From: a virus
Taxonomy: Duplodnaviria > Caudoviricetes
Direction: 5' to 3' (one strand)
DNA: 64,000 nt
IMG/VR virus record: IMGVR_UViG_3300033074_001413
Coordinates: 1-64,000 of that record
In this document: positions 34,574 to 54,300 of the stretch, piece by piece
Numbering within the stretch: position 1 is the first letter of the stretch
Layout of the letters: each line of letters begins with the position of its first letter
Translations under genes and position numbers: made by a program
Notes under the pieces: generated by a model
Told to the model about the DNA's origin: nothing
The model's database searches: none
Seen by the model: only the letters and a program-made list of their open reading frames with translations

Positions 34574-36922
34574 ATGAACCTGCGAGTTTTCGTCAAACGT
34601 GATGGCAAAGCAGTCGTCTCACAAGGATGTGACTCGCCAGCCAGTGCTGCCAGCGCTGTCGCTTCGTTTCTGGTTGGATACCCACCTCCCAACTACATGA
34701 TTGAGGTTGTCGAGGACCTTCCTCCTGCCACCAGAATTCAGCGCATCGCCAATTTGCGCTTTCCATCCACTGACTTGAACAGGGAGACCACTATTCTCGA
34801 GTGGATGAAGACTTTACTACTCACCTTGTTTCAAGAGGAAGAGGGGTTTTCCGGGAAGCGACCGCTTGGTAATAGCTCCTGGAAGGCTGATGCTGAAGCG
34901 GCGCTAATCCAGGCCGGACTACTCAACGGAAAGTTGGATTCTGAAGGCTACATCGAGGAGTGTGCCGATAGTATGCCAATTTTTGTAGAAGTCATCAGCG
35001 CACTCGAGACACCCAAGCCTTAAACATTGACATCGCACCGGAATTGAGCTACAATAGAGTTGGTGATCTGCATTAACTGCAGCAACGACTTTGTTGGAAG
35101 GCGCTGCCCTAATTGCGGTGCTCTCCCACCTGAACACGCCAAGAAGAATCCATCTCTTGGCGACATCCTTTACTCGCGTAAATTCGTCAGAAGGTTTTTC
35201 ACCGACCAGAAGAAGATTCGACTGTCCGGTGACGACAAACCTTGGAATGAATGGTAACCATGGAAGCTATTTGTGTATTTCACTCTGAGACAGGGACTGA
35301 GGGTGGATTCTGGGCCGTCCAGGATCTTCAACATATCCACCCTCCAACCGATGGACACCCTTATGGCCGTTGGGATTACGAAGGTCTGCATATTCTCAAG
35401 GATGGTGACAAGCTAACCATCTATTCCAAGGACCGTGAGGTCATTTGGAATGGTGAGATTAAACTCACAGAGTATCCGGTCTTCACCGAAGAGGCCTGTG
35501 GCATGTGGATTCACTCCGACCAGCAAGGAGTGGACCGTGAAACATGGGCCAAATATTTCATGGAAGAGTCGCCGTGTTCGTACTTTCCTGGACCAGAGTC
35601 ACCCAATGCTGAATGAAGACGTTCTACCTGCTGATTGGGAAGATACTCCCCACAATCGCGACTTATGGAAGCGATATGCTAGCGCCCGCAATATAGCTGA
35701 GGGAATTCACGCTAGTGAAAATCATCCCGGCAAGATGAAAGACTGTATAGAGTGCAAGAGCGGGTTTGCACTATTACTGGTAGGTTCACAATGCGCGTGA
35801 ATTTCGGAATGATGATCGGCGACGAACAGTGCCGCGTCGGTTACAAAGAATACCCTGTGGATAATCCGTCAGAGGCTGCTCTGGCTATCGCAACCGACTA
35901 CCTGGAATTCAAGAAGGTGATGGACTATCACGGACATCCAACATTTCTTGAACTCACCGAGAGAGTTGAAGGTTTGCCTGATCTAATAGATGCGCACCTC
36001 GATCCGGTATTGGAGACCGTGATGTACCAATATGAGGCAGGAGTAGTTGATCCCATAACCGGAGAGGTCCGTTGGACAGGAGAAACCATCAAGTCATCTT
36101 CAGAGGAAGAGGCGCTTGATGAGTTTACTAGGCAGGGATACTATCGGAATTTGCGTGTGAGGCAATCTAATATTCCTGACTCGACTCCAACTATGCTACA
36201 ATGAGTTAGTATGAGTCTGCAACAATTTGACGACGACTGTCCTGGGTGCAAGCCAGCGGTGCTGGACCCAAAGACAAACGAAGTGTTGCCAGATGACCAT
36301 CCAGTCATGGTGGCTATCTTTGCCGTGTGGGAGACCACTACCCCGGAAGAGCGTAAGGCATTTCATGACGTGTGCTGTCTTAATTCTCAGCAGCCACACG
36401 ACATGGCACTGATGCAGGGTCTCGTCCTCCGTATCCAACTGGCGATTCACAAGGTGCCGGGAGAAGTCCAATGATGAAGAAGGTCGCACTGATCAAACTT
36501 TCAGTCTGCCCATGTGGGTTTACACTCCTGGCTGACTCCATTCCGCTTGGCACGGAGTACACCATTGACACCGAGACAATCGGCAACGAGTTCTCCTACC
36601 GTTGTGGTCGGTGTGGAACGATCCATCGTAACATGGCAAGCGTGCGAACCAGTCAGTCCCTGCACCCGGAACGACCAATGGCACCTCTGCCACTTGAGTT
36701 GTTCATGACCACGCCGTCTGGCGCTCTCGAAGTAATCCAGTGATCCCACTGCGCATCATCGATTTCGCGTGGACTCCATATGGATATTTGTTCACGCTCA
36801 CCGAGGACGCCACCACCAACAAAGTTTGGTCCGTTTTGCTTGATGCGTATCAGGCGTTGTCGCTCCTTCAACAACCCGGCATTCGGGTAGATACGAGTAC
36901 GAAGATATTCTCGGTTTGGTAG
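34574..36922 (+). other. Run of small hypothetical genes (34574-35023, 35060-35257, 35260-35616, 35791-36204, 36211-36474, 36471-36743, 36740-36922)
   Basis: Packed plus-strand ORFs with overlapping start/stop codons. Confidence 0.65.
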
Positions 36923-37043
36923 CCAGTCAGATACGGCTGGCACAGGCTGATGCCAGAGCCAACATGGATGACGCCGAGCTTCTTGGGTATCCCGCCTCCA
37001 AAAGATGAAAACAGGTGGTGTCTAATTAAAACTGGAGACCACC

Positions 37044-37379
37044 ATGAAGTCATTCAAACAATTCACCACGGAGTCAGTCGAAGTCGTTTTCCTTGGTAAG
37101 GAGTCGCTGTCCGATTCTTCACGCGGTCCTAAACCAAGTGGCCGTTGGGGATGGGAATATCAGTTTACAGTCAATGGTAAGAAGTGTAATGTGCAAATGG
37201 GCGACTGGCTAGAGCATGAAAGCTCCGGTGAGATCGAAGCACAAATGCCGGATCTAGTTGACTTTGTTGGTCCTGACGCCGAAGAGGGTGTCGCGGTCAA
37301 AGTAATGAAGGACATCTTCGTTGATGGTAACGACGACATCCTTAAGCGCAAAGGCACCCGCAAGACCTTTAATGTCTAG
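37044..37379 (+). CDS. Putative internal head protein
   Basis: MKSFKQFTTES tag; CTAATTA and GGAG upstream. Confidence 0.7.
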   Translation: MKSFKQFTTESVEVVFLGKESLSDSSRGPKPSGRWGWEYQFTVNGKKCNVQMGDWLEHESSGEIEAQMPDLVDFVGPDAEEGVAVKVMKDIFVDGNDDILKRKGTRKTFNV

Positions 37380-37381
37380 CC

Positions 37382-37843
37382 ATGAAATCATTCCGAGTAT
37401 TCTCAGAAAGTACCGACGCCCATGTTGACTGCGTTCACTCCGCAGTAGAAAATGAGGCTTTGACATTCCGCGAGAATTTCGGATATGCGGCGCATGGTGA
37501 ACAGTACGCCGCCGCATGGGAAAACGCCTCATCATACCTTCAAAACTGTCCTGGTCTGTCAGAAGACGAGTTTCGGCGGATCCTTGAAAGAGAATACCAC
37601 TTCAAATACGACCCGAATGACTGGGTGTATATGGCATCCACTGGGAAGCGTAATGGTGTGGCGCAGTGGTACTGGAGCTATGTTTCAAGTAGTGAATATC
37701 TCCAGGCCAAAGCGCAGGGTGATATTGCGATTTGTTCAAGATGTGAAACTTGGTGGGCTGACGACAATGACAGCAGCGAGTGCTTTAAGTGCCGGGGTTG
37801 GAAAGAGGCGAAGAATCTCTCTAAACACAGGCCAATATTCTAA
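37382..37843 (+). CDS. Putative internal head protein with a C-terminal zinc ribbon
   Basis: MKSFRVFSES tag; CSRC...CFKC. Confidence 0.65.
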   Translation: MKSFRVFSESTDAHVDCVHSAVENEALTFRENFGYAAHGEQYAAAWENASSYLQNCPGLSEDEFRRILEREYHFKYDPNDWVYMASTGKRNGVAQWYWSYVSSSEYLQAKAQGDIAICSRCETWWADDNDSSECFKCRGWKEAKNLSKHRPIF

Positions 37844-38271
37844 TGCGCACATTCAGCCAGTTCATTACCGAAGCGCAAGGTGAGGTCCTCTACCACGTCA
37901 CCCACACCAGCCTCGTTCCTAAGCTGCAGAAAGAAGGCCTTAAGACTGGGCAAAAAGCCAACTGGGTGAAAGCGGCGTCCGGTAGGAAGTATGGCAAGGG
38001 CGAGGTCCACGCGTTCGAAGACAACCACGACGCCATTCGTTGGGCGGCGCGTATGGACTGGGAAACAAACCGTCAAACTGGTTCAGGGAAGATATCCATA
38101 CTCACCATCAATCGCGGCACTCATAAGTGGGTTGTTGATACCAATGATCCGCTTAGTCAGCTTGGTAGTCGTGGTAAGTGGTTGAAAACCAAAGAGAACG
38201 TCAATCCCGCCGATATCACTCATGTCGAACCGCTCACCGTCGACATGGTCAAGAAGTTGATCCAACAGTAA
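37843..38271 (+). CDS. Putative packaged ART-like protein (Tpt1/DarT-like His motif)
   Basis: MRTFSQFITEA tag; LYHVTH...KLQKEGLK; VNPADI. Confidence 0.65.
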   Translation: MRTFSQFITEAQGEVLYHVTHTSLVPKLQKEGLKTGQKANWVKAASGRKYGKGEVHAFEDNHDAIRWAARMDWETNRQTGSGKISILTINRGTHKWVVDTNDPLSQLGSRGKWLKTKENVNPADITHVEPLTVDMVKKLIQQ

Positions 38272-38279
38272 ATACTAGT

Positions 38280-38687
38280 ATGAAGTCGTTTAGCCAGTTC
38301 ATCACCGAAGTCACTGCGCATGTCTATCATGGCGGTAATCTCTCCGCAGATAAGCCGCTGGTCACCTACTGGACGCAGGACCGCGAAATGGCTCTATCCT
38401 ATGCGGAGATGTCTGCAGATAGATTCGGCGGTGACCACGGGATAATTGACAAGACCCTCACACTCGTACCTGCACCCTGGTCATTGATTCAAAAGGAAGC
38501 GCGTAAGGTCGGTATTGATCCAGAAGATTACACACCCGCAAGCGTATTCGACGCCGAGATACAAGGTGAAGAATCAGTACGCGATCTGGTCAAGGCACTT
38601 AAATCCCTCCATTATACCGGAGCCATTCTGCCCGATATTGCCTACGGCAAGCAGATTGAAGCTGACGCCTGGATTGAGTTCAACTAA
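38280..38687 (+). CDS. Putative packaged ART-like protein
   Basis: MKSFSQFITEV tag; VYHGG...YWTQDREMALSYA; TAAATA-N5-ATG. Confidence 0.65.
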   Translation: MKSFSQFITEVTAHVYHGGNLSADKPLVTYWTQDREMALSYAEMSADRFGGDHGIIDKTLTLVPAPWSLIQKEARKVGIDPEDYTPASVFDAEIQGEESVRDLVKALKSLHYTGAILPDIAYGKQIEADAWIEFN

Positions 38688-38705
38688 CTGTGCTATAATC
38701 CAATT

Positions 38706-38891
38706 ATGGATTGTCCAACAGGTAAACGGTCGTACTCGAAGGGTAAGGCCGAGGCGCAACTCCGTTCACTCACCCGCAAGGATCCAAACTATGCCGGATG
38801 TGTCTATCCGTGCGTCACTTGCCAGGGTTGTCACGTCGGCAGACTCAAGAAGGGTGCACACCGTAACAAGTACAAGGTGGCCGCGCAATGA
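38706..38891 (+). CDS. Small zinc-finger-like protein
   Basis: CPTGKRSY...VYPCVTCQGCH; TATAAT-N6-ATG. Confidence 0.65.
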   Translation: MDCPTGKRSYSKGKAEAQLRSLTRKDPNYAGCVYPCVTCQGCHVGRLKKGAHRNKYKVAAQ

Positions 38892-40149
38892 CGCAAAGGT
38901 ATATTGTTAGATCAGGCGACCACTACTTGGTTTGGGAGGGTGTCGGCAATCAGTACGCTCTTACACTTAACCTGTTCCATACGGTCTGCCGCCAGTCGTT
39001 TGATAAGCAAGCGGAGGCTCAGCGGTTTATTGACGTAGCCAAAGTTGCTGGCAGATCGTTCCTGTACAATAAGGAACTCGACAAGGTCGAATCGGTGAAA
39101 CTTTGCGATATCCCGCTTGAAGTGGTCATGGCTCAGGTCGATATCCGGATATAGTTGCGGGTTTCACTTCACGTATGCTTTAATATACCTATGGATATTA
39201 AAGCCATCGCCAAAGAAATCGCTGCCGCGCTTAGCCGGGACAGTGTGATCCCTGATACGGACGGGTATCAGGAAGAGGCGGAGCGCATTGCGCTCGAGGT
39301 TCTGCAACGGCATGCCTAACCCGCTGATGCTCGTGGGCGCGTTCGTGTTCTTCATCCTGCTCGATGACCGCGTGGTGCTCGCCTTGAAGTACCTGCTGAA
39401 GGACTGGCGCAATAAACTAACCAATTCGGGCTGCTGTTAAAACGATATCTTGCAGGTTCACTTCACCCTGTGATAAAATCCTAGTATGGTATTCAATACC
39501 GAGGACGAAATCCGCGCTTACTACCAGGGTCGCATGGACGAAGCCGACCGTTGGGCGTACTGGCAGGGCGGCGCAAAGTGGTGTGGCACCTCTGATCGCC
39601 GTGCCTTGCAGGACATCCTCGCCGAGCTTACGCTGCAGATGGCGCAGTGCCTGGAGCAGTTCCGGAGGCAACACGCATGACAGGCCAGGAACTGTACGAG
39701 TGGCTCCAGGCGATCCCGGAAGAGGACCGACGCCGCGCACGCTGCACGCTCGAAGTAGCTGCCGAACACGAGGATCTGGTCACGGCCAAGATCTACACGG
39801 AGGGTGATGGTAAGCGCATTTACCTAATCAACAAGTGAGCCGCCGCCATTTGAATTAAGATTAGTAGGCTGTTAAAAGATATGCCGCTCGACAGGCCATC
39901 TGCGACACGCGAGGAATCCATCTCGGATCTACACACCGTCGTATATCTGCTGCAGGGCATAGCCGACCAAATCGAACTCGAAGCCTCCCCATTACCCGCC
40001 GATCCGCACAAATCCGACGACTCCTACTACCGCGTCTGGTCTGCAGTGACCGACGCACGTGCCGCACTGTCCAGTACCGCACGCAGAATACTCGAACTAC
40101 CCGAGCGTCCGCGCTTGAAGCTGGTCAAGCGCGAAAAACCCCAACAACG

Positions 40150-40173
40150 TAGTGGGGTAAATTGGGGCATTTG
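40150..40173 (+). repeat. Direct repeat, copy 1 (24-bp exact core of a ~75-bp imperfect repeat)
   Basis: TAGTGGGGTAAATTGGGGCATTTG, also found at 41210-41233. Confidence 0.9.
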
Positions 40174-41209
40174 ATATCGCATTTTCCGAAGGGTATGGTA
40201 TGTCGCGTGATGAACTGATCGCACAACTTCAACAGCTTCCCGAAGGGGAAGTACAGGTGATCGTCAAGGTGTGGTCGCCGCTTGGCGCTGAGTACGACAG
40301 GCGTCCAGGAACCATATGGGTCGGAAGCAACGCCGTGGTGGTGACGCCGAAATGATCAAAGTACTGATACTCGCTCTGCTGTTCATCCTAATATTGAGCG
40401 GAAAGGGCGAAGCTCCGCCAAGCACATGACCATAACCGTCGAGCAGATGTGGTTGATGGCACGAATCTGCCAAAGCCTGATCATTCCGAAGGCATCGATC
40501 CGGCACGCGGATAAAATAGTGATTAGTCGACTGCTCGTAAAAAGGCTAGTTGAGCTGAGGCGTTGGCACGACGGCGATCAGTATGGCCTTACACAAACCG
40601 GGTGGGCAGTGGCCGAGCGACACCGGATGGAAGAATGGCCAATCAAAGGAACATACCGTGACACCACATGAGGTTTTGACCACGCTTTTGGGCGATCTGA
40701 GCGCACCGGACTTGGAGAATATGCTTGGTCGGGCGCGGGCCTTGAATGCCTCTCTTGAGGCGATCATGCGCAACCGCAACTTCAACGAAGTGACCACGGA
40801 GGAGCACGTGGTCAACAGTATGGAGATGGTCGCACGCGTGGGTGTGGCGATCAACGACGTCAAGAAGAAGCGCGAGCACCCCTATGGCTGAGACACTGGC
40901 CGAGGCGCTTAAGGCGGAAGAGGCACAACTGTCTTTGAAGGTGTTGGGGTTGTCGATCCGTGGGCGAACTCTGACATTTGAGGAGGCGCAAGCGGTGTGT
41001 AAACGGGCGGAAGAAATTGCCAAGCAAAGCCAAACAGATTGAACGTTATCAACGCCAAATAGCGACCGACAAGCGCAGCACCCGGCGCACCGCCAAACGT
41101 CGTTTAGCTTATTTTGCCCGCTACAAGCGGATGACGATTGCGGAGTGTAAGAAGTATCTGCTGCGGATCGGATGGAACTGGCGGGAGTTCTGAAAAAATC
41201 CCCACGACA

Positions 41210-41233
41210 TAGTGGGGTAAATTGGGGCATTTG
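41210..41233 (+). repeat. Direct repeat, copy 2
   Basis: Identical to 40150-40173. Confidence 0.9.
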
Positions 41234-41283
41234 TAGATCGATTTTCCTTGAGGGTATATCTCGCGCACGACCCCGCAGAGCAA

Positions 41284-41363
41284 TAGAGACCTCCGACACC
41301 CGACAGAACACCCGACACCCGACAGAACACCCGACACCTGACAGAACAGTAGAGACCTCCGAC
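41284..41363 (+). repeat. Iteron-like tandem repeat
   Basis: Three 19-bp units CCGACACC(C/T)GACAGAACA(C/G) bracketed by two copies of TAGAGACCTCCGAC. Confidence 0.9.
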
Positions 41364-41494
41364 CAAGGGCCAAACTAGTTTGTTTACGATCCACAAGTTT
41401 GGGGGTTTTGGGGTGGGTTTCGGAAATACCCCCTATGGCCCACCGGGACCCTTCCGGGACCCTTACGTAAACCGACCCCGCCGTCTACTTCGCG

Positions 41495-41929
41495 TCACCC
41501 CGTGTACTTCACTGGGTCCATCATGTTCCCTGCATCCCATGCGATCACTTCATCTATCCCATCGAGTCTGTCTATCACGGCATGCAGAGTTGACAGTGCG
41601 GCATCTGCATCAACATCCCTCGACTCACTTTCATCCTTCTGCGCGGCATGTAGATGTTGCAATGCCTTGGCTAGTTCCTTATCCATCGTGGTTACCAAGG
41701 TCGGTTCATTGTCGTCCGGATCCTTGTAGATAAGCATTTCCCTTTGGTTCTTTGGTATTGTGCCTACCGCTTTCTCAACCCGGCTATGCAAATCCCATAA
41801 CATCTTGAGCATCTGTTCATAATGCGCCTGATTGTAAGTTCCCATTCGGGACGGGTGAAACATGATCTTATCATGCAGGGAGTAAAGTGGTTTGGTATCC
41901 GCTTCGATAAGATACTGTTTGAATGTCAT
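41495..41929 (-). CDS. Putative internal head protein
   Basis: Start reassigned to ATG 41929 (MTFKQYLIEA); CTTTATA-N5-ATG. Confidence 0.65.
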   Translation of the reverse strand: MTFKQYLIEADTKPLYSLHDKIMFHPSRMGTYNQAHYEQMLKMLWDLHSRVEKAVGTIPKNQREMLIYKDPDDNEPTLVTTMDKELAKALQHLHAAQKDESESRDVDADAALSTLHAVIDRLDGIDEVIAWDAGNMMDPVKYTG

Positions 41930-41954
41930 ACTTGTATAAAGCGACCTAACCCAC

Positions 41955-41984
41955 TTGACAGATTGGGGTCTCATGTGGTACAAT
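41955..41984 (+). promoter_or_regulatory. Sigma70-type promoter with extended -10, upstream of the large ncRNA
   Basis: TTGACA-18 nt-TACAAT, with TGTGG immediately before the -10. Confidence 0.8.
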
Positions 41985-41990
41985 GGGTTT

Positions 41991-42615
41991 GTTCGGATGG
42001 GGCTGGTAGGGCGAGCTTAAAGCCAAGGCCAGTCGCCATGAGACACCCGGTGAACGACGGTCGCGAAAGGCGTGCGGCACCGGGATTGATGGTCTAGTTT
42101 AATTTCTGGAAAAACGCAGTAGTGTGAACGTCGGGTTCGGCGTGCAAGGACTCGGCGGCTATTGCATCCTGGGTTCAAGACCAGGGACCATCAACGTGGG
42201 AGAGTGTAGGCCAGTTACCGATGGCTACGAGCCGCCGTATGGCTCTGCCCTGGCGCAATGGGTCGGGCGGTAGGCGGCATCGGGACAATCGACGGGTCGT
42301 ACTCAGCGCGGGCGCGGATTGCACATCTCGGCTACCCGCCACTTCGATACCGTCCACTCTCCAAACGCAACGCTGCGGCAGGGCGGTGACCCAAGGTCGC
42401 TCCGGTGAAAGTCCGGCGAATCAACGGCACTCGTCACGGTAGAACGTGCACTCCTGCCGCAGCAACACATAGCACAACGGCAGAACCATTACTCGACGGC
42501 ACCAGAGCATGGGAGGCTCGCAATGACTCCACCGGGCTAGAAAACCAACCCAAATTAGACAGAAAAATCGCGCCGGAAAGGACACCCCTGGAGATCAACC
42601 TCCGGGGGTGATCCG
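41991..42615 (+). ncRNA. Large structured ncRNA candidate (~620 nt) with an embedded tRNA-like domain
   Basis: No credible ORF; many G-U-containing helices, T-loop motifs and a kissing-loop complement; ends in an 11-bp hairpin (42583-42610). Confidence 0.7.
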
Positions 42616-42664
42616 TTTAGGATAATTCCAGGTTTACCCGAACCTGTGGTAAACTGGTTCATAT

Positions 42665-42976
42665 ATGGATATCGATTTCATAGCAGAAGACACCGACGCC
42701 GGGTCGGTTTCCATTACGGCAGTTTCATCCAAGGCCTACGAGAAGTATCCCATGGGCTTCCGGCTGCTGACCCCTCAACAAGCGCAAAAAGAAGCGTCCG
42801 ATCTACGCGGCAGCGGCTTTACCATCCTGGATCGGACGAGCGCAACGTTGGGCGCAACGTGCGCGACGGGACCCTACAAACAAGTCCTATGCCATCGTCC
42901 TACTCTGCTCATGGACGAACCGTTTGGGGAGATGCAACCCGAACCAGTCCGGAATATCTACATCGAGGTCAAATGA
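42665..42976 (+). CDS. Hypothetical protein
   Basis: TGTGGTAAACT box just upstream; followed by a coupled small ORF starting MNWKYWH. Confidence 0.55.
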   Translation: MDIDFIAEDTDAGSVSITAVSSKAYEKYPMGFRLLTPQQAQKEASDLRGSGFTILDRTSATLGATCATGPYKQVLCHRPTLLMDEPFGEMQPEPVRNIYIEVK

Positions 42977-43613
42977 ACTGGAAATACTGGCATTCTCATT
43001 TCGGGTGTACTCACCCACCGCTCTGCATTCGCTGCACGTGGTGCGGCTACCGGGCCAACCCGTTGAAGTACTACCCGATTGCCATCCTGCAGATACTCGC
43101 GTTCAAGTGCCTGGACCTCCTGGCCTGGATGGAGAAATGGGACCAGCGATTCGCCTCCAACCAGCGGTAGATCTACTTCGCCCGCTCGCCCGCGATAGAA
43201 GTTGGCGAACGCGTCAACCAAACTTCGCGCATCGAATGGTCGAGCAGATCTCTGCCGGGACAATACCAAATCTCTCCGCGCAACAGTGCATAATCAGCAT
43301 CATCCAGGCTGAGTACGGTTTGGAGAAGGCGCAGGAGATTCAAGCTCTGTTCGACACGCTAAACCATACTTGACACGGCAGGTTCACGTATGGTTTAATG
43401 GTTGTAATGCAACCCTTCCAATCAATCGCCGAACTCACGCGCTGGTTCGCCGCGCTGCCCGTGCAGAGTGAAATGAGCGTTCTGCTCGACTTCCGGGATA
43501 TCGGCATCGGTCTGCAGCGGCGGGAGATTCAGAACCGCAATGGCAACTGGGTGATCGGGTTCGGTTCACTGGGCGTGCTGATCTAGCGGCACGGTCAGGT
43601 CACGTTCAGTTGC

Positions 43614-43660
43614 CCCCTGCTAGAGGACAGAATAGAGTAGATCTGTCTCTCTAGCAGGGG
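43614..43660. terminator. Long hairpin at the convergence of plus- and minus-strand gene blocks
   Basis: CCCCTGCTAGAG-GACAGA...TCTGTC-T-CTCTAGCAGGGG. Confidence 0.6.
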
Positions 43661-43981
43661 CGCTCCCTTTATGATCTCTACGGAGTTTCTAAGGGGTTAT
43701 ATCAGCCTTCTACCGAACAAATCCTGTATTTCTACTCTTTGTAAACCGAACTCGTCTCCCCGCTCACAGACGCAGTTTACATCTCCTTTTCCGGTGTTGA
43801 CTCCATCGCTATCTTCAAAATCCCCGTCAAAGGATGAGCGGTATCCCCACGTACTTCCACTCGTGCCCCACCGAATAGCCGTCTAAACAGATCCTGGCTG
43901 TACGGATCGGCAGAGCAGATCGCCTTTGCATCCAACTCCGGGAAAGGTTTGCGCACCAGTGGCAGCAAAATGGGCGTATCT

Positions 43982-44764
43982 TTATCGTCTTTCACTCAGT
44001 ATCTGCTCGACTTCCGCCAATTTCACCGCCGCTTCCAACCCCTCCAGGTTCGTCCCCTCTACCTTGATATTCCTGTCTACCCACACCGTGTAGGTCCCTT
44101 GTTGGATGATAACGGAGGTGTTTGCCCTATCCCACTGCTCTGCGCTGCTGTTCTGGTTGATTTTGAACCCCGCCTGGATTAGTACATCGCGCCACTCCAT
44201 CGTTTCCTCGAAGTGGTCTAGGCCCTTGGTCACCACCTTGCCGTCCACCCAGATGGTATAGGTGAAGAAGTCCTTCGGCTTGGAGATGACCACGGCGACG
44301 TTGTCCTTCTCCCACTGCTCGTTCGGCCATGCACTCTTCTCATGCACGACATGGTAGCCCCTCGCGATGAGCACCTCACGCCAGTTTTTCAGCCCGCTAT
44401 CCTTCCAGTTTAATGTCTCGACCAAGGTGCCCAGGCGGTACTTCCACTCGACTTGAGCGGACTCCTTGCGCCACTTGTAGTCAAGCATCAGCGCCGTCCG
44501 ACAGTCATCCGGCGTGCGGTAAGATTCCTGACTTCCATCTGGGTAGGTAATGCATGCCCCATCCCCACTGCTGCACTCTATGAAATATCGGACGCGTGCC
44601 ACTGGTTCGACAATCACGCGTGCCGAATCGGGGTGGAAGGCTGGATCGGCTTCTAACACCCTAAGTGGGCGCGGACCTTCCGGGAATTCGAGAAACAGCT
44701 CGCCAATTTTGGGAATTCTATAGTCCCCGGTTGGCCTGACCTCAACGCCTTCCCACGTTAGCAT
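43982..44764 (-). CDS. Hypothetical protein with a C-terminal tandem duplication
   Basis: WREVLIARG..EQWEKDNVAVVI..YTIWVD is repeated as WRDVLIQAG..EQWDRANTSVII..YTVWVD. Confidence 0.7.
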   Translation of the reverse strand: MLTWEGVEVRPTGDYRIPKIGELFLEFPEGPRPLRVLEADPAFHPDSARVIVEPVARVRYFIECSSGDGACITYPDGSQESYRTPDDCRTALMLDYKWRKESAQVEWKYRLGTLVETLNWKDSGLKNWREVLIARGYHVVHEKSAWPNEQWEKDNVAVVISKPKDFFTYTIWVDGKVVTKGLDHFEETMEWRDVLIQAGFKINQNSSAEQWDRANTSVIIQQGTYTVWVDRNIKVEGTNLEGLEAAVKLAEVEQILSERR

Positions 44765-45386
44765 GCCAAGATCCTTTCATGCCGCGCAGAGCGCGTGCAA
44801 GCAGCGTCAAATTTCCGTCTAATTACCCAGGATCGATGTACGAGCGCGTTGAAGTCAGATCTGCGCCGTTCGATTGGGCGAAGCCATATTGAAAGCGTAA
44901 ACGTGAGTTGATTACTCCGGATTTTGCGGATCATTTTAAAGCATCCTAATCCTTAATCTTCGGTGCGGCCTTCTTGGGCTTACCCAGTGCCTCCGTCTTG
45001 ACCGCGCAGTTCACCTTCAGTGTGGGCAGGAAGAAATGCGTCTCGCCCGCTTCGACCTTGACGTCACCCGTCGACCACTCCATGATGTCCTTGAGACGGA
45101 TTGAGCGGCGTTTGGCGACGTAGCGCAGTTCATTCAGTACGGCGGTTTCAAGCGTGCGCATGCTCATTGGTTTTCTCCAGTTCCGCGATTCTCCCCTTCA
45201 GGGCGGCTATGCACCCGCGCAGCAGTCCACCTGTGACCGAATCACCATCGGAATGAAACGCGGTGTCCTTGTAGATCCGCCCAACCATCTGGCCGTTGAG
45301 CATGATCCTGCCCTCGCTGCCGTTGCATACCGTGCAGCCACAGCGTTCGACTTCACCCTCGATCTCCATCTGACAGTTCACGCAGA

Positions 45387-45851
45387 TCATGCCGATGCCT
45401 TTCCTGTCCCACGTAGGTATTGGGTCACCTTGAACGGGAATCGTTTGAATATTTCCGGGTATGCTTGGACTGCCATGGCCAGGAGTTCTTCGAAAGTGTA
45501 GTCACCCTGCGCCAGGAAGCAGCTATTGGATTTGAAGCGGGTGTCAACCGTGCGGTCCCAGAATGCCAGGGCTGTCCAGCCGTCCTTCTTGTGCAACAAA
45601 GCCCGACCCTGCGTCTCCTGCTGGTCGGGTGGACAGAGCGTCGAGTCGATGAGGTGCTTCCACGGCTGGACTTCAACTCGACGCGTCTGTCCATTCTCGT
45701 AGAGGTAGTGACCTATCCCGCGTAGACACCCGAAATAGAAGATCGACGGGGTGTTGAAGGCACCACGTTCAGCGTAGTGCTGCGCTACTTCAATGAATGG
45801 CTCCGGTACGCCAAGCCGACGTAGTTCTTCCGGGTCGCACACGCGTTTCAT
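45387..45851 (-). CDS. Hypothetical phage protein
   Basis: In a minus-strand operon; GWTALAFWDRTVD. Confidence 0.7.
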   Translation of the reverse strand: MKRVCDPEELRRLGVPEPFIEVAQHYAERGAFNTPSIFYFGCLRGIGHYLYENGQTRRVEVQPWKHLIDSTLCPPDQQETQGRALLHKKDGWTALAFWDRTVDTRFKSNSCFLAQGDYTFEELLAMAVQAYPEIFKRFPFKVTQYLRGTGKASA

Positions 45852-46435
45852 ATTAGTTCACCGCGTGGCTGACCTGACCGATGATTGAGACGCCAGAGAT
45901 GAGTTCACTCACTGACCCACCTCGCTTTCGGCTTGGGGTGGGCCAATTCGTACTCGGTGCGGAAGGCTATTGCGGTTTCCGGGTCGCAGTTGAGGATGGC
46001 GGAGTACCTGCCAGATCCCTCGTTCAACCCGGTGCCACCCTCGGCCAGACGTTGGCGAACCTGGGCGAGAGCATACATCAACTGTGTTTGATCTTCACCT
46101 TCGATGGTGATGGTAAACTTCAGCATAACCCAATTCTACCACAGAACTGGGTGAATTTGCAACTATCCTATTTGCCGAACCCGACCTTGAAACCCTTGTT
46201 GAACGCCTCGACAAACGGCTTATTGGTGGATGCGGCTAGCAGCGCGGCGGTGAGCAGCGGAGTGGTGTCTTCCAATTCGCTGGCTAGTTCACTACCCATT
46301 TCATGCTGCTCGATATATCCCAGGAATGTTTCCTTCTCATCGAGTGGAATGTCATATTCCTTGCACATCTTACCGAATAGTTGACCTTCCTTTTCGAAGA
46401 TCTGAAGAGCTTTTGTTTGATTCATGCTTGGCATC

Positions 46436-46906
46436 TTAATCCCTTTTGAGGTTGAGGAATGATAGGTCGACAACCTCGTGATCTAAAATCTGAACATCCG
46501 TAATTTGCAGATCTTCGGATGGGTATAAACTAACTGTTTCTTTGAACCGTCCTTGCTTCATCCAACCCTTGCCGGGTGCGGTACGGTGCAAGTAGGTGAG
46601 ATATCTATATCCTTCTTCGCGGGCTTGAGCGATTTCCCGTTTCAGCACTGTGTTGAACGTTCGTCCACGAACGGCCTGTTTGATAATCTCATCAATGTCT
46701 TTAATCTTTCCTGGTTTGGCCTTAACGGTAAGTATTCGTGGCTCTCCTGGTCTGCCGTACTGAACTCGCGTCCATGGCATTATTGCGTCTTTGTTAGAAG
46801 CCAAAAATATAACGTCGCCTTGGAATTTTGAGAACGCATGTTTAGCGCCGTGATAAAAGACCCACTGATCTTTAATTTCGGCCATCAACTGCTGATAAGT
46901 ACGCAC
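46436..46906 (-). CDS. Putative packaged ART-like protein, paralog of 17273..17722
   Basis: MRTYQQLMAE tag (GTG start); FYHG..F..F..IFLA; TAAATA-N5-GTG. Confidence 0.6.
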   Translation of the reverse strand: MRTYQQLMAEIKDQWVFYHGAKHAFSKFQGDVIFLASNKDAIMPWTRVQYGRPGEPRILTVKAKPGKIKDIDEIIKQAVRGRTFNTVLKREIAQAREEGYRYLTYLHRTAPGKGWMKQGRFKETVSLYPSEDLQITDVQILDHEVVDLSFLNLKRD

Positions 46907-47434
46907 ATCTTTATTTAGGGTGATGTTTCAAACAGGCCAGACAGTCCACTTCCGCCCAGTCAAATGTGGTGAGCAGTGGCGAGTCAGTGCACATCTTCCA
47001 GGCGCGACAGGCACGACCTGCTGGACACAGCGTCCTGAGTTGGTTGTGACCATTCCACCAACCCATGTGGCGCTTACGTGTAGTTGCGGCCTTCGTCGAC
47101 TTTGCATTGGCAGATGACACAATGATCCTCCCATGCGTGTCCACCAGCAATTAACCGGGTCTCCCAGTGTCTCCAGGAGTGAACCAGCACACACCACCAT
47201 CCAGGCTTCCGGCTAACAGAATGGAAGGTTGTAGCACACGTCTTCATATATGCCCTTCAATGAAATCGGCCTCTTGTGCCACAGCGCTTCGATGGTGGAA
47301 ACCAATGAAAAGTAAATCACCATCAGGATGACCAAAACACAAGTAAGATAAGTCCAGCCATGGCTAGGACTAATATCGTCAGCGCCGTCGCCAGTGCCAG
47401 ATTCCACGAGCACTGCATTAGAAAAATTACTTTA

Positions 47435-48580
47435 TCAATGTGCGACATTAACACGTTTCCACTTCCTACCGACGCGAATGGTGGATTTACCGACGAGTTT
47501 TGGTACACCGGATATGCGGCAATCGTCTATCTCAACCGCACCAGCCTTGATAAGACGTTGGGCTTCGGTATTTGACGACGCCATGCCAGCCGCGACCATT
47601 ACACGATCAAGACGGTCCTCCTGGACGGAGACCTCCTCAATGTCCGTTGGCTTTTCACCACGCGTGAATTGCTTCTCCCATTCTTCCTGTGCGATGTCCG
47701 CTGATTGACGGTCATGGAGCCATTCGACAATCCTCCATGCCAGTTCGAGCTTACATATCCTTCTATCCAGGTCTGGGCTAGCCGGATTGATGAATACCTC
47801 CGGGAACAGTGTCCCCCACCAACGAAACATCAGCGCGTCGGAAATGCTCATTACCTTGCTGAACATCTCGAACGGTGCTTCATTCAGCGCGATGTGGTTG
47901 CCAAGCGACTTGGACATCTTCTGGACGCCGTCAAGCCCCTCGAGCAACGGGACTGTGGCAATAACCTGAGGCTTGGCTTTGCGTAGGCGCATGTACTCAC
48001 GCCCGATCATCAGGTTGAATAGCTGGTCGGTGCCGCCAAGCTCGATGTCCACGCTCTCAATATGCGAGTCGTAGGCTTGCAGAAGTGGGTATACCAGTTC
48101 ATGCAGGTGGATTGGGGATTGGTCTGCGAACCGCTTCTTGAAATCGTCGCGTGCCATGATCTGCTGGAGCGTAAAGCTCGACAATAGACGAATCACGTCC
48201 GCGAAGGAAAACTTATCGAACCATTTGTTGTTCTCATGGACGCAGGTCTTGTCCTTATCCAGGATCTTGTAGACCTGATCCAGGTACGTAAGGGCATTCC
48301 GGCTGATGATGACCTCGTCTAAAGCGGGACGTAGGGAGTTGCGGCCAGTCGGATCACCGATTGCTGCAGTGGCAGTGCCGACGATCATCATCACGGTGTG
48401 ACCGTGGTCCTGGAACGTACGAAGGGTTTTGAGCAGGACGGCGTGGCCGAGATGGAGGTCTGGTGCAGTTGGATCGAACCCGGCTTTCACACGCAGTGGC
48501 TTTCCACTCGCGATCAACGCGTCGAATTCTTTCTCATCCACAACCTGTACGAATCTGTCACGCAGCTCCATGCCATTCAC
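47435..48580 (-). CDS. tyrS: Tyrosyl-tRNA synthetase
   Basis: KAGFDPTAPDLHLGH, IGDPTG, YPLLQAYD, ELGGTDQLFN, KMSKS, C-terminal S4 domain. Confidence 0.96.
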   Translation of the reverse strand: MNGMELRDRFVQVVDEKEFDALIASGKPLRVKAGFDPTAPDLHLGHAVLLKTLRTFQDHGHTVMMIVGTATAAIGDPTGRNSLRPALDEVIISRNALTYLDQVYKILDKDKTCVHENNKWFDKFSFADVIRLLSSFTLQQIMARDDFKKRFADQSPIHLHELVYPLLQAYDSHIESVDIELGGTDQLFNLMIGREYMRLRKAKPQVIATVPLLEGLDGVQKMSKSLGNHIALNEAPFEMFSKVMSISDALMFRWWGTLFPEVFINPASPDLDRRICKLELAWRIVEWLHDRQSADIAQEEWEKQFTRGEKPTDIEEVSVQEDRLDRVMVAAGMASSNTEAQRLIKAGAVEIDDCRISGVPKLVGKSTIRVGRKWKRVNVAH

Positions 48581-49589
48581 GGTCCCTTCTTAGGCGACGT
48601 GCTCTCTCTTCATCATCTTCTTCACGACGGGCGAACTCGGAGATGGGATGATATGGAATACCAGTCCCATATAGTTCCCGACATATCTCCCTTTCGATGT
48701 CTTCTGCGGTGCGATTGTACGGCATGGCTAATACCTTCTGTGCGGCACTGACTGTTCCTTGCGTTTCAGGAAGTACTTCTCGATGAACCTGATCTGATCG
48801 GGAGTGAACCCGGCGATGCCAGCTTCTCTGAGCCACTCTTCGCGTTCCAGTTTGTGCTTTTCACGAAATTCTTCAAGCACCTTATCTCTTCCGAGAGTCT
48901 TGCTTCTGACAGCCATTCATAATCTCCCAATACAAATCAATCTTGGTTTGCCATCTGTTGACGGTCTATCCGATAGATGGCTCTGGCGATGTGTCCACAC
49001 CAAATTCTGAAAGCTTTCCGCACCACGGACAGGTCCACTGATGCCTGTTTTCTGGAGCGTCTGCTATCGTCCACCACTTCCGGCAATGTGGGCAACGGAA
49101 GTGATATAAATGCTCCAGCGAGCGCAGTCCGCGTTGGTTCATATTGATACGTAGTCATGACCTACCACGGACCACAGCAGTAATCTTCATTAATTTAGCC
49201 AGCGCGTCGGCAGCTTCCTGATCCATACCTTCTTCAATATAGGCCTTGGCTAAATCGCGGTACGCCTCACGCAGACCACTAATGGCGGTGACCAGCGCTT
49301 CGCGGCACTTAACTATGCTAGTTGGCGGCGTTGGCACCCCGCGTTTCATTGTTCTTCCCCGATGAACTCTTGAACCCGTTCGTCGGACGGCACAACCCAA
49401 TTGGTAATTCGGCCAGTCTTGACGTCGATGTCGAGGGTGATGGAGCAACGTCGGGGCGTAGCCGCTACGCTGAAGCAGAATACTTCCGTCGTCACCAAAC
49501 AGAGTGGTAGAGCAGAGGTCACTGCACTTGGCATCAATCCTCAGGATCATACCATCATTCTACCACAAGGTGAATGAAACGGTCAAGAT

Positions 49590-49931
49590 TCAACGTTTGG
49601 CTACGAGCCAGTTGGTGTGGTTGCCTATCCGCTCAAACAACCCGGTGCTAAGGTAGTAGTTGACCAATTTATCTTGATTACCACGAGTGGAGTAGGCAAA
49701 TAATACGAGAGTGAGACCAAGCTTCTTTGACTCCGCTACGGCCTTGCGGAGGACCTCTAGGCCAGCGCCCTTCTCACCACCATTGGTGAGACGATCAAGG
49801 AAAGCGATGTCATCAATGTCGCATTCAAGATCATCGGCGAGTTCGTCGGCGTAGTCGTAGTAGAAATCGTTGTCAGCCCATTCCTCTGGCTCAAGAAGTT
49901 CCGCCGATGCTGCGCCTGATTTGATTTCCAT
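49590..49931 (-). CDS. GNAT-like acetyltransferase
   Basis: KGAGLEVLR...LVLFA...LVNYY..GLF; third gene of a late operon. Confidence 0.55.
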   Translation of the reverse strand: MEIKSGAASAELLEPEEWADNDFYYDYADELADDLECDIDDIAFLDRLTNGGEKGAGLEVLRKAVAESKKLGLTLVLFAYSTRGNQDKLVNYYLSTGLFERIGNHTNWLVAKR

Positions 49932-50326
49932 TATTCTTTCGGGAACCCGTAATTCAACTTAACCGGACGACCATGCATTTGGTCATCGACGAACTTTTTG
50001 AGGGTCTCCATACCAATGTCAAGATGTTCTTGATCTGCGGACTGTGACCACTGTCTGAAGTTAGGGATTCCATTATTGTCGCAATCTTCTTGTGCAGACC
50101 ACCAACTCCAGTTCTCTTCATCTCCATAATCCTCAATACCAATCACACCTGGGAACTTCGGATGTTTTGCCCAGTAATATGACTTCTTATGAGCGAGTTC
50201 GAAACCCTGACCGAGAAGCCATGTAATGGCTTCTTTACAGAACGCTCCTGTGTGTTGTGTCCATCTCGGACGGTTCTTTGTCCAGACAGAAGATGCTTCC
50301 TTGAGGAATTGATTAAATGGCTTCAT
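49931..50326 (-). CDS. Putative internal head protein
   Basis: Start reassigned to ATG 50326 (MKPFNQFLKEA). Confidence 0.65.
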   Translation of the reverse strand: MKPFNQFLKEASSVWTKNRPRWTQHTGAFCKEAITWLLGQGFELAHKKSYYWAKHPKFPGVIGIEDYGDEENWSWWSAQEDCDNNGIPNFRQWSQSADQEHLDIGMETLKKFVDDQMHGRPVKLNYGFPKE

Positions 50327-51325: not shown

Positions 51326-54300
51326 ATGGCTCTTTCATTCAATTTTGCTCCATACTTTGACGACTTTGATCCGGCCAAGCATTTCTATCGGGTAATCTTC
51401 CGGCCAGCCCAGGGTGTCCAGGTCCGTGAGCTTAACCAAATGCAGTCTATCCTGCAGGAGCAGGTGTCTAGATTCGGCGCTTACTTCTTCAAGCATGGCG
51501 CAATGGTTATCCCAGGACAGGTTGGGTTTGATGCGAAGTTGGCCTATGTCCGTCTCAAGAGCATATCACGGCCATTCGATCCACTCATTATTGGTAAACA
51601 GGTATTCGGATTGTCAAGTGGTCTGGTTGCAGAAATTCGTGCGTACACTCCAGCAACAGTGAACGATCCTGATACGATCTATGTCAAGTATCTCAACTCC
51701 AACGTAGCTGGAGATCTTACCTTCCAGGTTGGTGAGCAGCTTCTGTTAATCGATGCCGATACCAGTATCGCCAAAGCCGAAGCCGCCGCAGCGGAACTCG
51801 CTGCCGCCACTGTGCAGCTTAGCACTGGAGTTGGGTCAGTCAGTACTCTTGATCCAATCTGGCACGTAACTAGCCCGTTGGGTGGTGGCTCTCATGCCGC
51901 TACGATTATTGACTGGAATCCATACTGGCGCGTACCTAGCGAAGGATATAACTGGATCTCGGCGAGCGGTGCTACTCAGAGTATGCCGCTTGGTGATTAC
52001 ACCTACAACACCGGGTTCAGCATTGATAACGGTTCGACCAGCGCAATATTCGAATACACCATCGCAGCGGATGATCTCGTTAAGTCGTTCACACTTACTG
52101 GTCCTGGTGGATACGTTGCGACGAAGGACTACTCTGCTCTAAACCTGCGTGGTGGTCTAGCCGACATGATCGACAACTTACCGGGTGACGGTAGTTATGG
52201 ACTGACCATCGTTGTCGAAAATCAAGCGAGCGCATACAGTGGTCTTCAACTAAGCACTGGTCAGGGAGCAGTTGGTAGTCTAGACACTCTCTGGCAGGTG
52301 AAGGCACCAAACAGAGCAAGACGTGGTGCTGCCCTGATTATCGATCCAATGGCTCACTGGTTCACTCCACCATCTGGTGCGAAGTGGATTGGTAGCGTGG
52401 CTGACCAGGATGTTGTCGGTGTCTATGAGTATTCCGCACAGTTCAATGTCGACACTGGAACCAACTCCAGCACGTTCACCTACTCAATAGGCGCTGATAA
52501 TCGTGTGAAACAGTTGGTATTGACTGGCCCACAGGGTTTCAAGTCAACCAAGACTTATTCCGGCCAGCACTTCGGCGATGGGAACCATGGCACGTGGGGT
52601 GAGATGGTTGAGGACTCCATCAAGGGTATGCCTGATGGCGACTACACCCTGACCGTACAAGTTGAAAATACTGAGACAGTAGTCACCGATCAAACGCCAG
52701 TCGATGCCAGCACCGGGACTGGTAGCTGGACCGTATTGACTCCTGGCTCCGGGACATTCGTTGCAGCCAACGTTATTACCAAGGATCCACTCTGGATCGA
52801 CGTGGCTGGTGCTGAATGGGTCGGTGCAAGTTCCAATGCAGTCACACAGGGTATCTACACGTTCAAGCGCGACGTCACAATCAACGCCAGCGCCAATAAT
52901 GGTGTGTTCAATTACACCATCGCTGCTGATAATAGCATTAGAAAGATCACCCTAACTGGTCCTGACGGGTATATCGCCACACGCGACTACACAGAGCAGG
53001 ATAGATATAGCGAAGCCATTACAGACAGTTTCTATGAGCTACCGGGTGATGGTACCTACACAATCACGGTGGATGTAAAGAATCTGCCTGTACCAACTCG
53101 CATCCAGACTGAGTCAACAGTAATGTTGAACACCGGGTTTGGTGTGATCGGATCGAATGATAACCGCTGGACTGTAAAGGTTCCTGGTAGTGGATCATTC
53201 GTGCCAGCACACGTGATTGCTCGTGACGCTAGCTGGATGGTTGAGGGAGTGAACCAGCACTGGATCTCCGCTGGTACATCCAGTGCTGATGCTGTTCCGG
53301 CTGGAACGTACACGTTCAAGACCGAGTTCGAATTTGCATCCGGATCAGACTCCGGAGTCCTGAACTTCACTGTCGCGGCCAACGATGCTATCCGGACAGT
53401 AAAGCTGGAAGGTCCAAGCAGCTACTCCAGCACCAAGACATATTCAGATCTAAGCAACTACCATAATGGGGAGACCATCGCTGACATATTCGATGATCTT
53501 CCTGGAGATGGCAGCTATACTCTCACCATCACGGTAGAGAATAATGCTGGACCAGCGGTCCGTGTCAACCTTCCGACCATATCATTGAACAGTGGCTCTG
53601 GAATAGTTGGTTCTACTGACACTAAATGGACAGTGAAGCGTCCATTTAGTGGAACGTGGGACCCGGTATATGCAGTCGGTGGTGGTGCTGGTTGGTTCTC
53701 TGCCCCTGCCGGATCGCACTGGGTGTCACCGGATCATGATAACAACGCTCTTGCGAAAGGTGTATATGAGTACGCCACTACATTCAATATTACTGGTGGG
53801 GCAGACTTAGCCACACTCACACTCGACATTGGTGCTGATAATATCCTGAAGGATCTTGTACTAACTGGTCCTGGTGGATATTCAGTTACGCGCACATACG
53901 GAACAGACGACCGCACTGTTGCACCACTTCATGAGTCTATAACCAACCTTCCTGGAGATGGTACTTACTGGCTGAAGATTAAAGTAGAGAACTATCCGGT
54001 TCCACAAAGAGTCCAGACTGAAAGTGCCCAATCCATTGTGACCGGACAGGGTGGTGGAACACCTGGGACAGCTGACCGTCGGTGGACTGTTTTGAATCCA
54101 GATGCACCATCAGCGATACCAGCACCATTGGCCTCTCACCCGAACTGGTTTGCTCCAGATGCTGGTACATCCTGGATCGGATATACGGCTGGCGCAAACG
54201 CGGCACTACCACTCGATGTCGTCATCCTTTGCGATACCACTGGTAGCATGGGAGCCACCATACAACAGATTAAAACAAACATCGACTCTATCGTCGATGA

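Follow-up and report, generated by a model that had tools for sequence, protein, structure and literature searches.

Organization of the locus

We analysed a window of 64,000 nucleotides (the whole stretch of DNA presented here). It corresponds to positions 1–64,000 of an IMG/VR virus record of 98.8 kb, for which CheckV gives a completeness of 55%. Between the ATG at 41929, where a leftward gene starts, and the ATG at 42665, the first in rightward direction to open a reading frame (ORF), lies a gene-free interval with a sigma-70-type promoter at its left end. This promoter, which the sequence-only reading had described as strong and as belonging to the RNA itself, scores 11 out of 12, carries the TG extension and is indeed the top site in the 14 kb from 36000 to 50000. 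The predicted transcription start (+1) is near 41991. The coordinates of the main features are collected in Table 1.

The interval 41930–42665 contains no start-codon ORF longer than 73 amino acids (translation table 11). Recoding was considered and rejected, since neither table 4 nor TAG read as glutamine opened a convincing frame in this interval. No Pfam match was obtained for ten ORFs, nine of them inside the region and one just downstream (42924–43373), and a codon-usage score trained on the long genes of the phage is flat across 41930–42665 in all six frames. The initial claim that no plausible ORF is present thus stands under three genetic codes. The GC content of the RNA stretch is 59.7%, compared with 50.4% for the genome, which places it at the 98th percentile of windows of equal size.

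On its right side the RNA is followed by ~1.3 kb (42665–43980) in which all ORFs are short and have weak coding statistics, and a hairpin at 42628–42657 directly precedes the ATG at 42665. Further to the right (43360–43660) a promoter-like sequence TTGACA-17-TATGGT immediately precedes a 62-residue ORF (43398–43586, ATG at 43398), which therefore appears to be leaderless. This ORF is followed by a 12-bp hairpin at ~43612–43658 and then by TTTA, an arrangement that resembles the terminal hairpin of the RNA. A piece of this promoter region (43367–43401, 31–35 nt) matches other contigs of the DNA run X1 and is thus a repeated cassette.

Table 1. Positions of the main features of the RNA locus, of contigs from RNA libraries and of the synthetase gene. 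Positions are those of the window.
Feature	Position	Strand	Remarks
Sigma-70-type promoter	41955–41984	+	−35 TTGACA 41955–41960, 18-nt spacer, TG-extended −10 TACAAT 41979–41984 (TGnTACAAT 41976–41984)
Proposed RNA gene	41991–42615	+	~625 nt; from predicted +1 to end of terminal hairpin, both ends inferred
Domain 1, hairpin with internal loop	41997–42039	+	z −3.0
Domain 2, hairpin closed by CCCGGUG/CACCGGG	42046–42084	+	z −2.4; 3/200 shuffles as good
Domain 3, tRNA-shaped four-way junction	42086–42194	+	z −5.1 and −4.7; pair probabilities mostly ≥0.9
Domain 4, branched, closed by GGAGAGUG/CACUCUCC, three hairpins	42195–42367	+	z −2.7; 1/200 shuffles as good
Domain 5, 12-bp closing helix with three hairpins, one of them CCGG-UGAAAGU-CCGG (T-loop-like)	42372–42463	+	z −3.3
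Poorly structured 3' part and A-rich linker	42466–42572	+	z −0.8; 41/200 shuffles as good; low pair probabilities
Terminal hairpin, GC-rich, 11+3 bp, then ...GUUUAGG	42580–42614	+	z −4.7; MFE frequency 0.97
RNA-library contigs, run X3	42005–42375 and 42415–42575		0 differences
RNA-library contigs, run X4	42010–42484		0 differences
RNA-library contigs, run X5	42003–42220 and 42348–42498		0 differences
Tyrosyl-tRNA synthetase (TyrRS)	47435–48580	−	PHROG 9270, E 7e-75

Phage and genome context

The DNA polymerase of the phage is of the gp43 type and ~40% identical to the polymerases of T4-like cyanophages. Together with a DnaB-like helicase, a UvsX-like recombinase, TyrRS and eight distant tRNA genes it indicates a distant T4-type myovirus. 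The stretch is found on a contig of the DNA run X1, and the longest contig of this run has 179,659 bases, a length that would suit a genome of ~180 kb. The closest copy of TyrRS, with 57% identity, is encoded in a 405-kb virus record; the nearest bacterial matches (38–46% identity) are scattered across several phyla.

All of the eight tRNA genes found in the phage encode CCA. A tRNA-Tyr is absent among them, in a record that covers only ~55% of the genome. The tRNA genes nearest to the RNA locus, at positions 2799 and ~71.2 kb in the record, are separated from it by at least ~29 kb. The latter belong to a tight cluster of five on the minus strand at 71157–71551 of the record (L039 7157–7551) with the order Cys, Lys, Cys, Lys, Lys, in which the Cys/Lys pairs are duplicated. 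A tRNA-Leu and a tRNA-Thr lie beyond this cluster. On the plus strand of the window a single open frame of more than 4225 amino acids extends from 51326 to 64000 and runs off the window; the GC skew is negative there despite the plus-strand orientation.

Transcription in metatranscriptomes

Nine public runs are listed for the stretch, and three of them (X3, X4 and X5) are metatranscriptomes of one study. A check for a transcript had been asked for in the sequence-only reading. Contigs from the RNA libraries were found in all three runs, and mapped on 40500–45000 they are confined to 42003–42575, entirely inside the proposed RNA gene. None of them has loose ends or runs on into unlike sequence. 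The flanks 40500–42002 and 42576–45000 are uncovered in the three RNA runs, and the DNA run X1 spans the whole of 40500–45000 in one piece. The 5' edge lies at 42003–42010 in all three RNA runs, 12–19 nt past the predicted +1. The 3' edge reaches at least 42575, five bases ahead of the terminal hairpin.

Carry-over of DNA would also cover the flanks, so that the contigs are most simply explained by an RNA whose abundance or stability far exceeds that of the neighbouring mRNAs. The contigs therefore point to a discrete, accumulating RNA from 42003–42575, as judged from one study and from contigs, which give no strand, true ends or level. An own promoter, the lack of an ORF and a discrete transcript are thus all found at this locus, as is to be expected of a stand-alone phage gene for a non-coding RNA; its direction of transcription and its precise termini are those that we infer from the promoter and the fold. 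Three further runs (X6–X8; marine, wastewater and other) hold only 5–7% of the sampled words and have no bearing on the habitat.

Predicted secondary structure

The minimum free energy (MFE) calculated for the 631-nt stretch is −259.7 kcal/mol. The z-score of the whole RNA is −3.6 against a set of 20 shuffles and about −2.8 against a set of 40, and no shuffle of either set folded as well. One shuffle out of 40 had as many confident pairs, and five out of 40 had an entropy as low. For 150-nt windows of the genome the mean z-score is −0.49 (sd 1.17, minimum −4.5), and the z-scores found here sit inside the tail of these ordinary windows. The per-domain values (−2.4 to −4.7) are moreover flattered, because the domain boundaries were taken from the fold itself, after folding. 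Overall the fold exceeds chance to a moderate degree only.

Three observations speak for the plus strand, namely the promoter, a difference of 14.6 kcal/mol and, in the 5' third, the strand-specific z-scores at 42001–42225 (−2.9 and −3.1 on the plus strand versus +0.6 and −1.0 on the minus strand). The number of G-U pairs, which had been put forward as an argument for the plus strand, does not contribute to this assignment (19 on the plus strand versus 24 on the minus strand).

According to the prediction the RNA is a string of local domains and not a globally interlocked structure; no well-supported long-range helix or pseudoknot is present in the predicted fold. Two 6-nt complementarities between loops were noted (GUGCAA/UUGCAC and UAAUUU/AAAUUA). 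This is about what chance gives, with ~1 expected by our own estimate from the loop sizes and two seen. Most of the helices that had been named from the sequence are part of the MFE structure, namely CCCGGUG/CACCGGG, GGAGAGUG/CACUCUCC, GCGGG/CCCGC, the 12-bp helix 42372/42452 and the 11-bp helix 42583–42610, with many pair probabilities of at least 0.9. The hairpin CCGG-UGAAAGU-CCGG is also part of it, but with a pair probability of only ~0.5, whereas CCGAUG/CAUCGG and GAGCC/GGCUC are alternatives outside the MFE structure. A closure of the 5' and 3' ends by 5 bp is possible, but weak (probability ~0.3). The case for an ornate RNA is the weaker one: the folding is moderately better than that of shuffles (z −2.8 to −3.6), and the predicted structure consists of local domains with loop-loop matches at the level of chance and no well-supported long-range helix.

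The hairpin at 42580–42614 is a possible terminator with a short U run; a terminator scan does not call it.

The tRNA-shaped domain

Domain 3 is the best-defined part of the RNA. In the predicted fold it adopts a tRNA-shaped topology, a four-way junction with an acceptor-like stem stacked beside a T-like arm. The acceptor-like stem has 9 bp and the D-like hairpin 3 bp; the place of the anticodon arm is taken by a long, bulged arm of 18 bp with a 9-nt loop, and the T-like arm has 5 bp. The T-like loop has the sequence GUUCAAGA (8 nt) and the D-like loop the sequence UUUAAUUU. Acceptor-like stem and T-like arm would form a coaxial stack of 14 bp.

In spite of this shape domain 3 was rejected as a true tRNA. 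ARAGORN does not call it, the Rfam tRNA model (RF00005) gives no match even at E-values up to 10, and by direct reading it is without the CCA, the D-loop GG, the U8 and the 2-nt linker of real tRNAs, and its T-like loop has 8 nt, not the 7 nt of a tRNA. A suggested link to tRNAs is found inside the RNA, in the form of one tRNA-shaped domain, but not in its position, the real tRNA genes being ~29 kb or more away.

We also ran a single-sequence covariance model of domain 3 (R1), without filters, on the tRNA region of phage T4 (12 kb searched). The best match was tRNA-Thr, followed by rnaC (11.9 bits, E 0.15), tRNA-Ser and a match overlapping tRNA-Arg. All of these matches are weak, with E-values of 0.05–0.4 for the top three and up to 0.6 within the top four. 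A derivation of domain 3 from a phage tRNA was rejected, because only letters of the T-loop are common to both.

Comparison with known RNA families

A scan of Rfam 15 at gathering scores yielded only the tRNA at 2799, and a permissive scan of 41800–42800 gave four chance-level matches, with no tRNA, RNase P, tmRNA, intron, GOLLD or ROOL among them. The GOLLD model (RF02032; conserved 3' region, gathering score 150 bits) has no match in the whole record at E-values up to 10. The ROOL model (RF03087; 574 positions, gathering score 99 bits) has no cmscan match in 41800–42800; a dedicated ROOL search of the whole record gave no match either, in a setting in which no control genome was matched. For bacterial RNase P (RNaseP_bact_a, RF00010) no match was obtained in the phage, and 11 of the 14 control genomes were positive. 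The tmRNA model (RF00023), positive in most control genomes, touches only true tRNA genes at 71.3–71.5 kb and 96.7 kb, and ARAGORN finds no tmRNA. The sequence-only reading could not match the RNA to a known family, and the Rfam 15 cmscan and the dedicated models likewise miss the locus.

Like tmRNA and bacterial RNase P RNA, the candidate appears to be stable, is several hundred nucleotides long and contains tRNA-like or T-loop modules. The arrangement GAAAGUCCGG ... ACAGAA ... CCGG superficially recalls, on our reading of the sequence, the P4 strands of the RNase P consensus. The spacing and order of the elements, however, fit neither of the two RNAs, and their models find nothing at the locus.

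Search for relatives

A blastn search (word size 11) with 41930–42665 against 50,697 phage records found no homologue, and neither did five scans for exact or gapped motifs in IMG/VR and JGI metagenomes. The single motif match (L033) was rejected, as it falls by chance on stem II of a hammerhead-like core (CUGAUGA...GAAA). That core, at ~17–50 on the minus strand of IMGVR_UViG_3300002966_000068, comprises CUGAUGA, the hairpin GCCGG-UGAAAGU-CCGGC and GAAA. It is hammerhead-ribozyme-like, unrelated to the RNA, and sits directly behind a capsid-like ORF at the end of the contig.

The flanking proteins gave the same picture. A 144-residue leftward protein and a 260-residue protein have only self matches among 5.8 billion proteins, and the 103-residue ORF at 42665–42976 has only a self match among 1.84 billion representatives. 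Scans of IMG/VR with the flanking proteins gave no useful match; the matches in L002 and L003 were rejected, because the underlying DNA codes on the other strand. The phage that is nearest by TyrRS (the 405-kb record mentioned above) shows neither a BLAST match nor a match to the domain 3 model, and this model has no match in 19 other records related by DNA polymerase. No paralogue of the RNA was found within the phage itself. The island from 39 to 44 kb consists entirely of orphan sequence.

With no homologue by any of these routes, covariation analysis is inapplicable, no class can be defined and no base pair is supported by covariation.

Proposed role of the RNA

Based on these results we propose that this distant T4-like phage has, at the locus, a separate gene whose product is a stable RNA of ~0.6 kb that is not translated. 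The existence of the RNA gene as such we regard as well supported. The explanation as a whole is the one that we consider probable, and our confidence in it is kept moderate, because covariation, the standard proof of a structured RNA, cannot be applied.

The RNA polymerase of the host, with sigma-70, would start transcription at ~41991 from the near-consensus, early-type promoter. The transcript would form five or six domains, stem-loops or junctions, that are largely independent of each other, and would probably end at or just before the GC-rich hairpin 42580–42614. As suggested by the RNA libraries, it would accumulate far above the neighbouring mRNAs. As to its action we favour, tentatively and with low confidence, tRNA mimicry or protein binding, by a mechanism in which the RNA might act in trans as a scaffold or decoy. 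Domain 3 might engage a tRNA-binding partner of the host or the phage, and the flanking domains could supply stability or extra binding sites. Candidate partners are RNase P, RNase Z, the CCA-adding enzyme, a synthetase such as the phage TyrRS, or a tRNA-directed defence nuclease. The gene for TyrRS is located 5 kb from the RNA locus, with no obvious link between the two.

It is conceivable, if doubtful, that the RNA is the first example of a hitherto undescribed class of large RNAs in phages, with a tRNA-shaped module in a 0.6-kb scaffold and an early promoter, which would work as a decoy or sponge or form a higher-order particle. If this is true, it could be a sponge for a tRNA-binding factor of the host, e.g. 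a defence nuclease that cleaves tRNAs or an enzyme of tRNA processing or charging. The function of large, abundant phage RNAs such as GOLLD, ROOL and the T4 species rnaC and rnaD is a long-standing puzzle. The present RNA adds a case in which a clean promoter and a tRNA-shaped module inside the RNA go together with direct evidence that it accumulates in nature, and this offers a concrete handle for experiments. As a singleton it can be given a family, or a comparative proof of its structure, only once relatives are at hand.

Alternative explanations

In T4, rnaC and rnaD (species 1, 139 nt, and species 2, 119 nt) are processed out of a tRNA transcript. They resemble the candidate in being stable, non-coding RNAs of a T4-type phage with a puzzling function. 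According to its fold, rnaC (the second-best match of the domain 3 model) has a true T-arm, an acceptor-like closing stem and non-canonical arms between them. With the annotated production of rnaC and rnaD from the tRNA transcript as a precedent, and with plant t-elements and MALAT1/mascRNA as further analogies, domain 3 could serve as a cutting mark. In this case RNase P and RNase Z-type enzymes would cut a precursor at domain 3 into a ~95-nt 5' piece, a ~109-nt tRNA-like RNA and a ~400-nt 3' piece as active products. The 14-bp coaxial geometry of acceptor-like stem and T-like arm suits such a role, as does the ranking of T4 tRNAs and rnaC at the top of the matches to the model. RNA contigs, however, bridge both ends of domain 3 (42086 and 42194) in all three RNA runs, so that an uncut form exists and some of the RNA, at the least, stays intact at these sites. 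Domain 3 also has no CCA, no G in the usual −1/+1 context and no match to the tRNA model. The 5' part of the RNA is covered more deeply by the contigs than the 3' part, a point in favour of processing, but contig depth cannot rank the parts of an RNA. The T4 species differ from the candidate as well: they are 120–140 nt long and are, by annotation, located inside the tRNA cluster and cut from its transcript, whereas in the candidate the tRNA-shaped module makes up one domain out of five or six in a 0.6-kb RNA that has its own promoter and lies ~29 kb or more from the tRNA genes. There is no detectable sequence similarity between rnaC or rnaD and the candidate. We consider processing at domain 3 to be unlikely as the main explanation.

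A second alternative is a very long 5' leader that would regulate in cis the rightward ORFs at 42665–42976 and beyond, with the hairpin 42583–42610 as a conditional terminator. The RNA has the same orientation as the next ORF, and the second hairpin (42628–42657) abuts its ATG. On the other hand, the RNA contigs end at 42575 with nothing downstream, and the ORF itself, a 103-residue frame without a relative among the 1.84 billion representatives, has weak coding statistics. A length of 600 nt is several times that of known bacterial leaders, and small genes of this phage seem to stand directly behind their own promoters, as does the one at 43398 with its promoter at 43370–43400. A leader function is thus rather improbable.

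The reading as a giant ornate RNA leads to GOLLD and ROOL, which share with the candidate a size of ~0.6–0.8 kb, an origin in phages or prophages, high abundance and the lack of an assigned function. Membership in an ornate giant RNA class in this broad sense is possible. In particular, the candidate could form a self-assembling, RNA-only particle of this kind as a member of an unrelated family. Size, phage origin and abundance fit, two loop-loop complementarities of 6 nt are present, and the tRNA-shaped element inside the RNA may be compared with GOLLD, which sometimes holds a tRNA in its linker (10.1101/2024.12.08.627333). The two complementarities, however, are close to the number expected by chance, and the fold has no supported long-range helices, pseudoknots or kissing loops. 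An RNA of the GOLLD/ROOL kind would be expected beside tRNA islands, whereas the candidate is located away from tRNA genes, with no tRNA island and no family of its own. The models of both families are null at E-values up to 10, but the dedicated ROOL search has little weight, as it was silent in the control genomes. A particle of this kind is therefore quite improbable.

It is also very unlikely that the RNA has no function at all, i.e. that a strong promoter transcribes decayed, GC-rich filler and the product persists only by virtue of its GC-rich folding. The moderate z-scores, the orphan character of the whole 39–44 kb island and the lack of conservation data would agree with this. Untranslated and unprotected RNA is, however, normally short-lived in bacteria, and of 4.5 kb only this locus shows up in the three RNA libraries. 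It is also rare for a lytic phage to retain 0.7 kb of filler downstream of the best promoter it has, and domains 3 and 5 as well as the terminal hairpin are well defined.

An early origin transcript, which would prime or open a nearby replication origin as in the precedents of ColE1 RNA II and of T4 oriE with its iterons, dependence on an early promoter and strand-switch region (PMC3016281), has on its side the T4-type phage, the strong early-type promoter, a strand-switch region with a cumulative GC-skew maximum at 41254 and a 19-nt iteron-like array at 41293–41357, 0.6 kb to the left of the RNA and thus within 0.7 kb, but it is highly improbable. Transcription of the RNA leads away from the array, the converging rightward (9–39 kb) and leftward (44–51 kb) gene blocks account for the skew peak, the RNA is not G-rich (GC skew +0.01), and a primer need not accumulate as a long, folded, discrete species of 0.57 kb.

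Repeats to the left of the RNA

The iteron-like array (41276–41363 with its borders) is built from three units spaced by 19 nt and based on CCGACACC, with a 22-nt repeat on both sides. The skew maximum at 41254 is that of the whole contig. A 14-nt perfect inverted repeat connects the RNA (42296–42309) with 40285–40298, so that pairing between the RNA and a transcript from the plus strand of the latter would be possible; such a complement is about what chance gives genome-wide (~0.5 expected by our estimate). A 40-nt direct repeat, 90% identical, occurs at 40134–40173 and 41194–41233, and in run X1 as well this repeat has a second, 90%-alike copy on the same contig. The copy at 41194–41233 holds a minus-strand hairpin followed by a T-run, a terminator-like site at 41217–41200.
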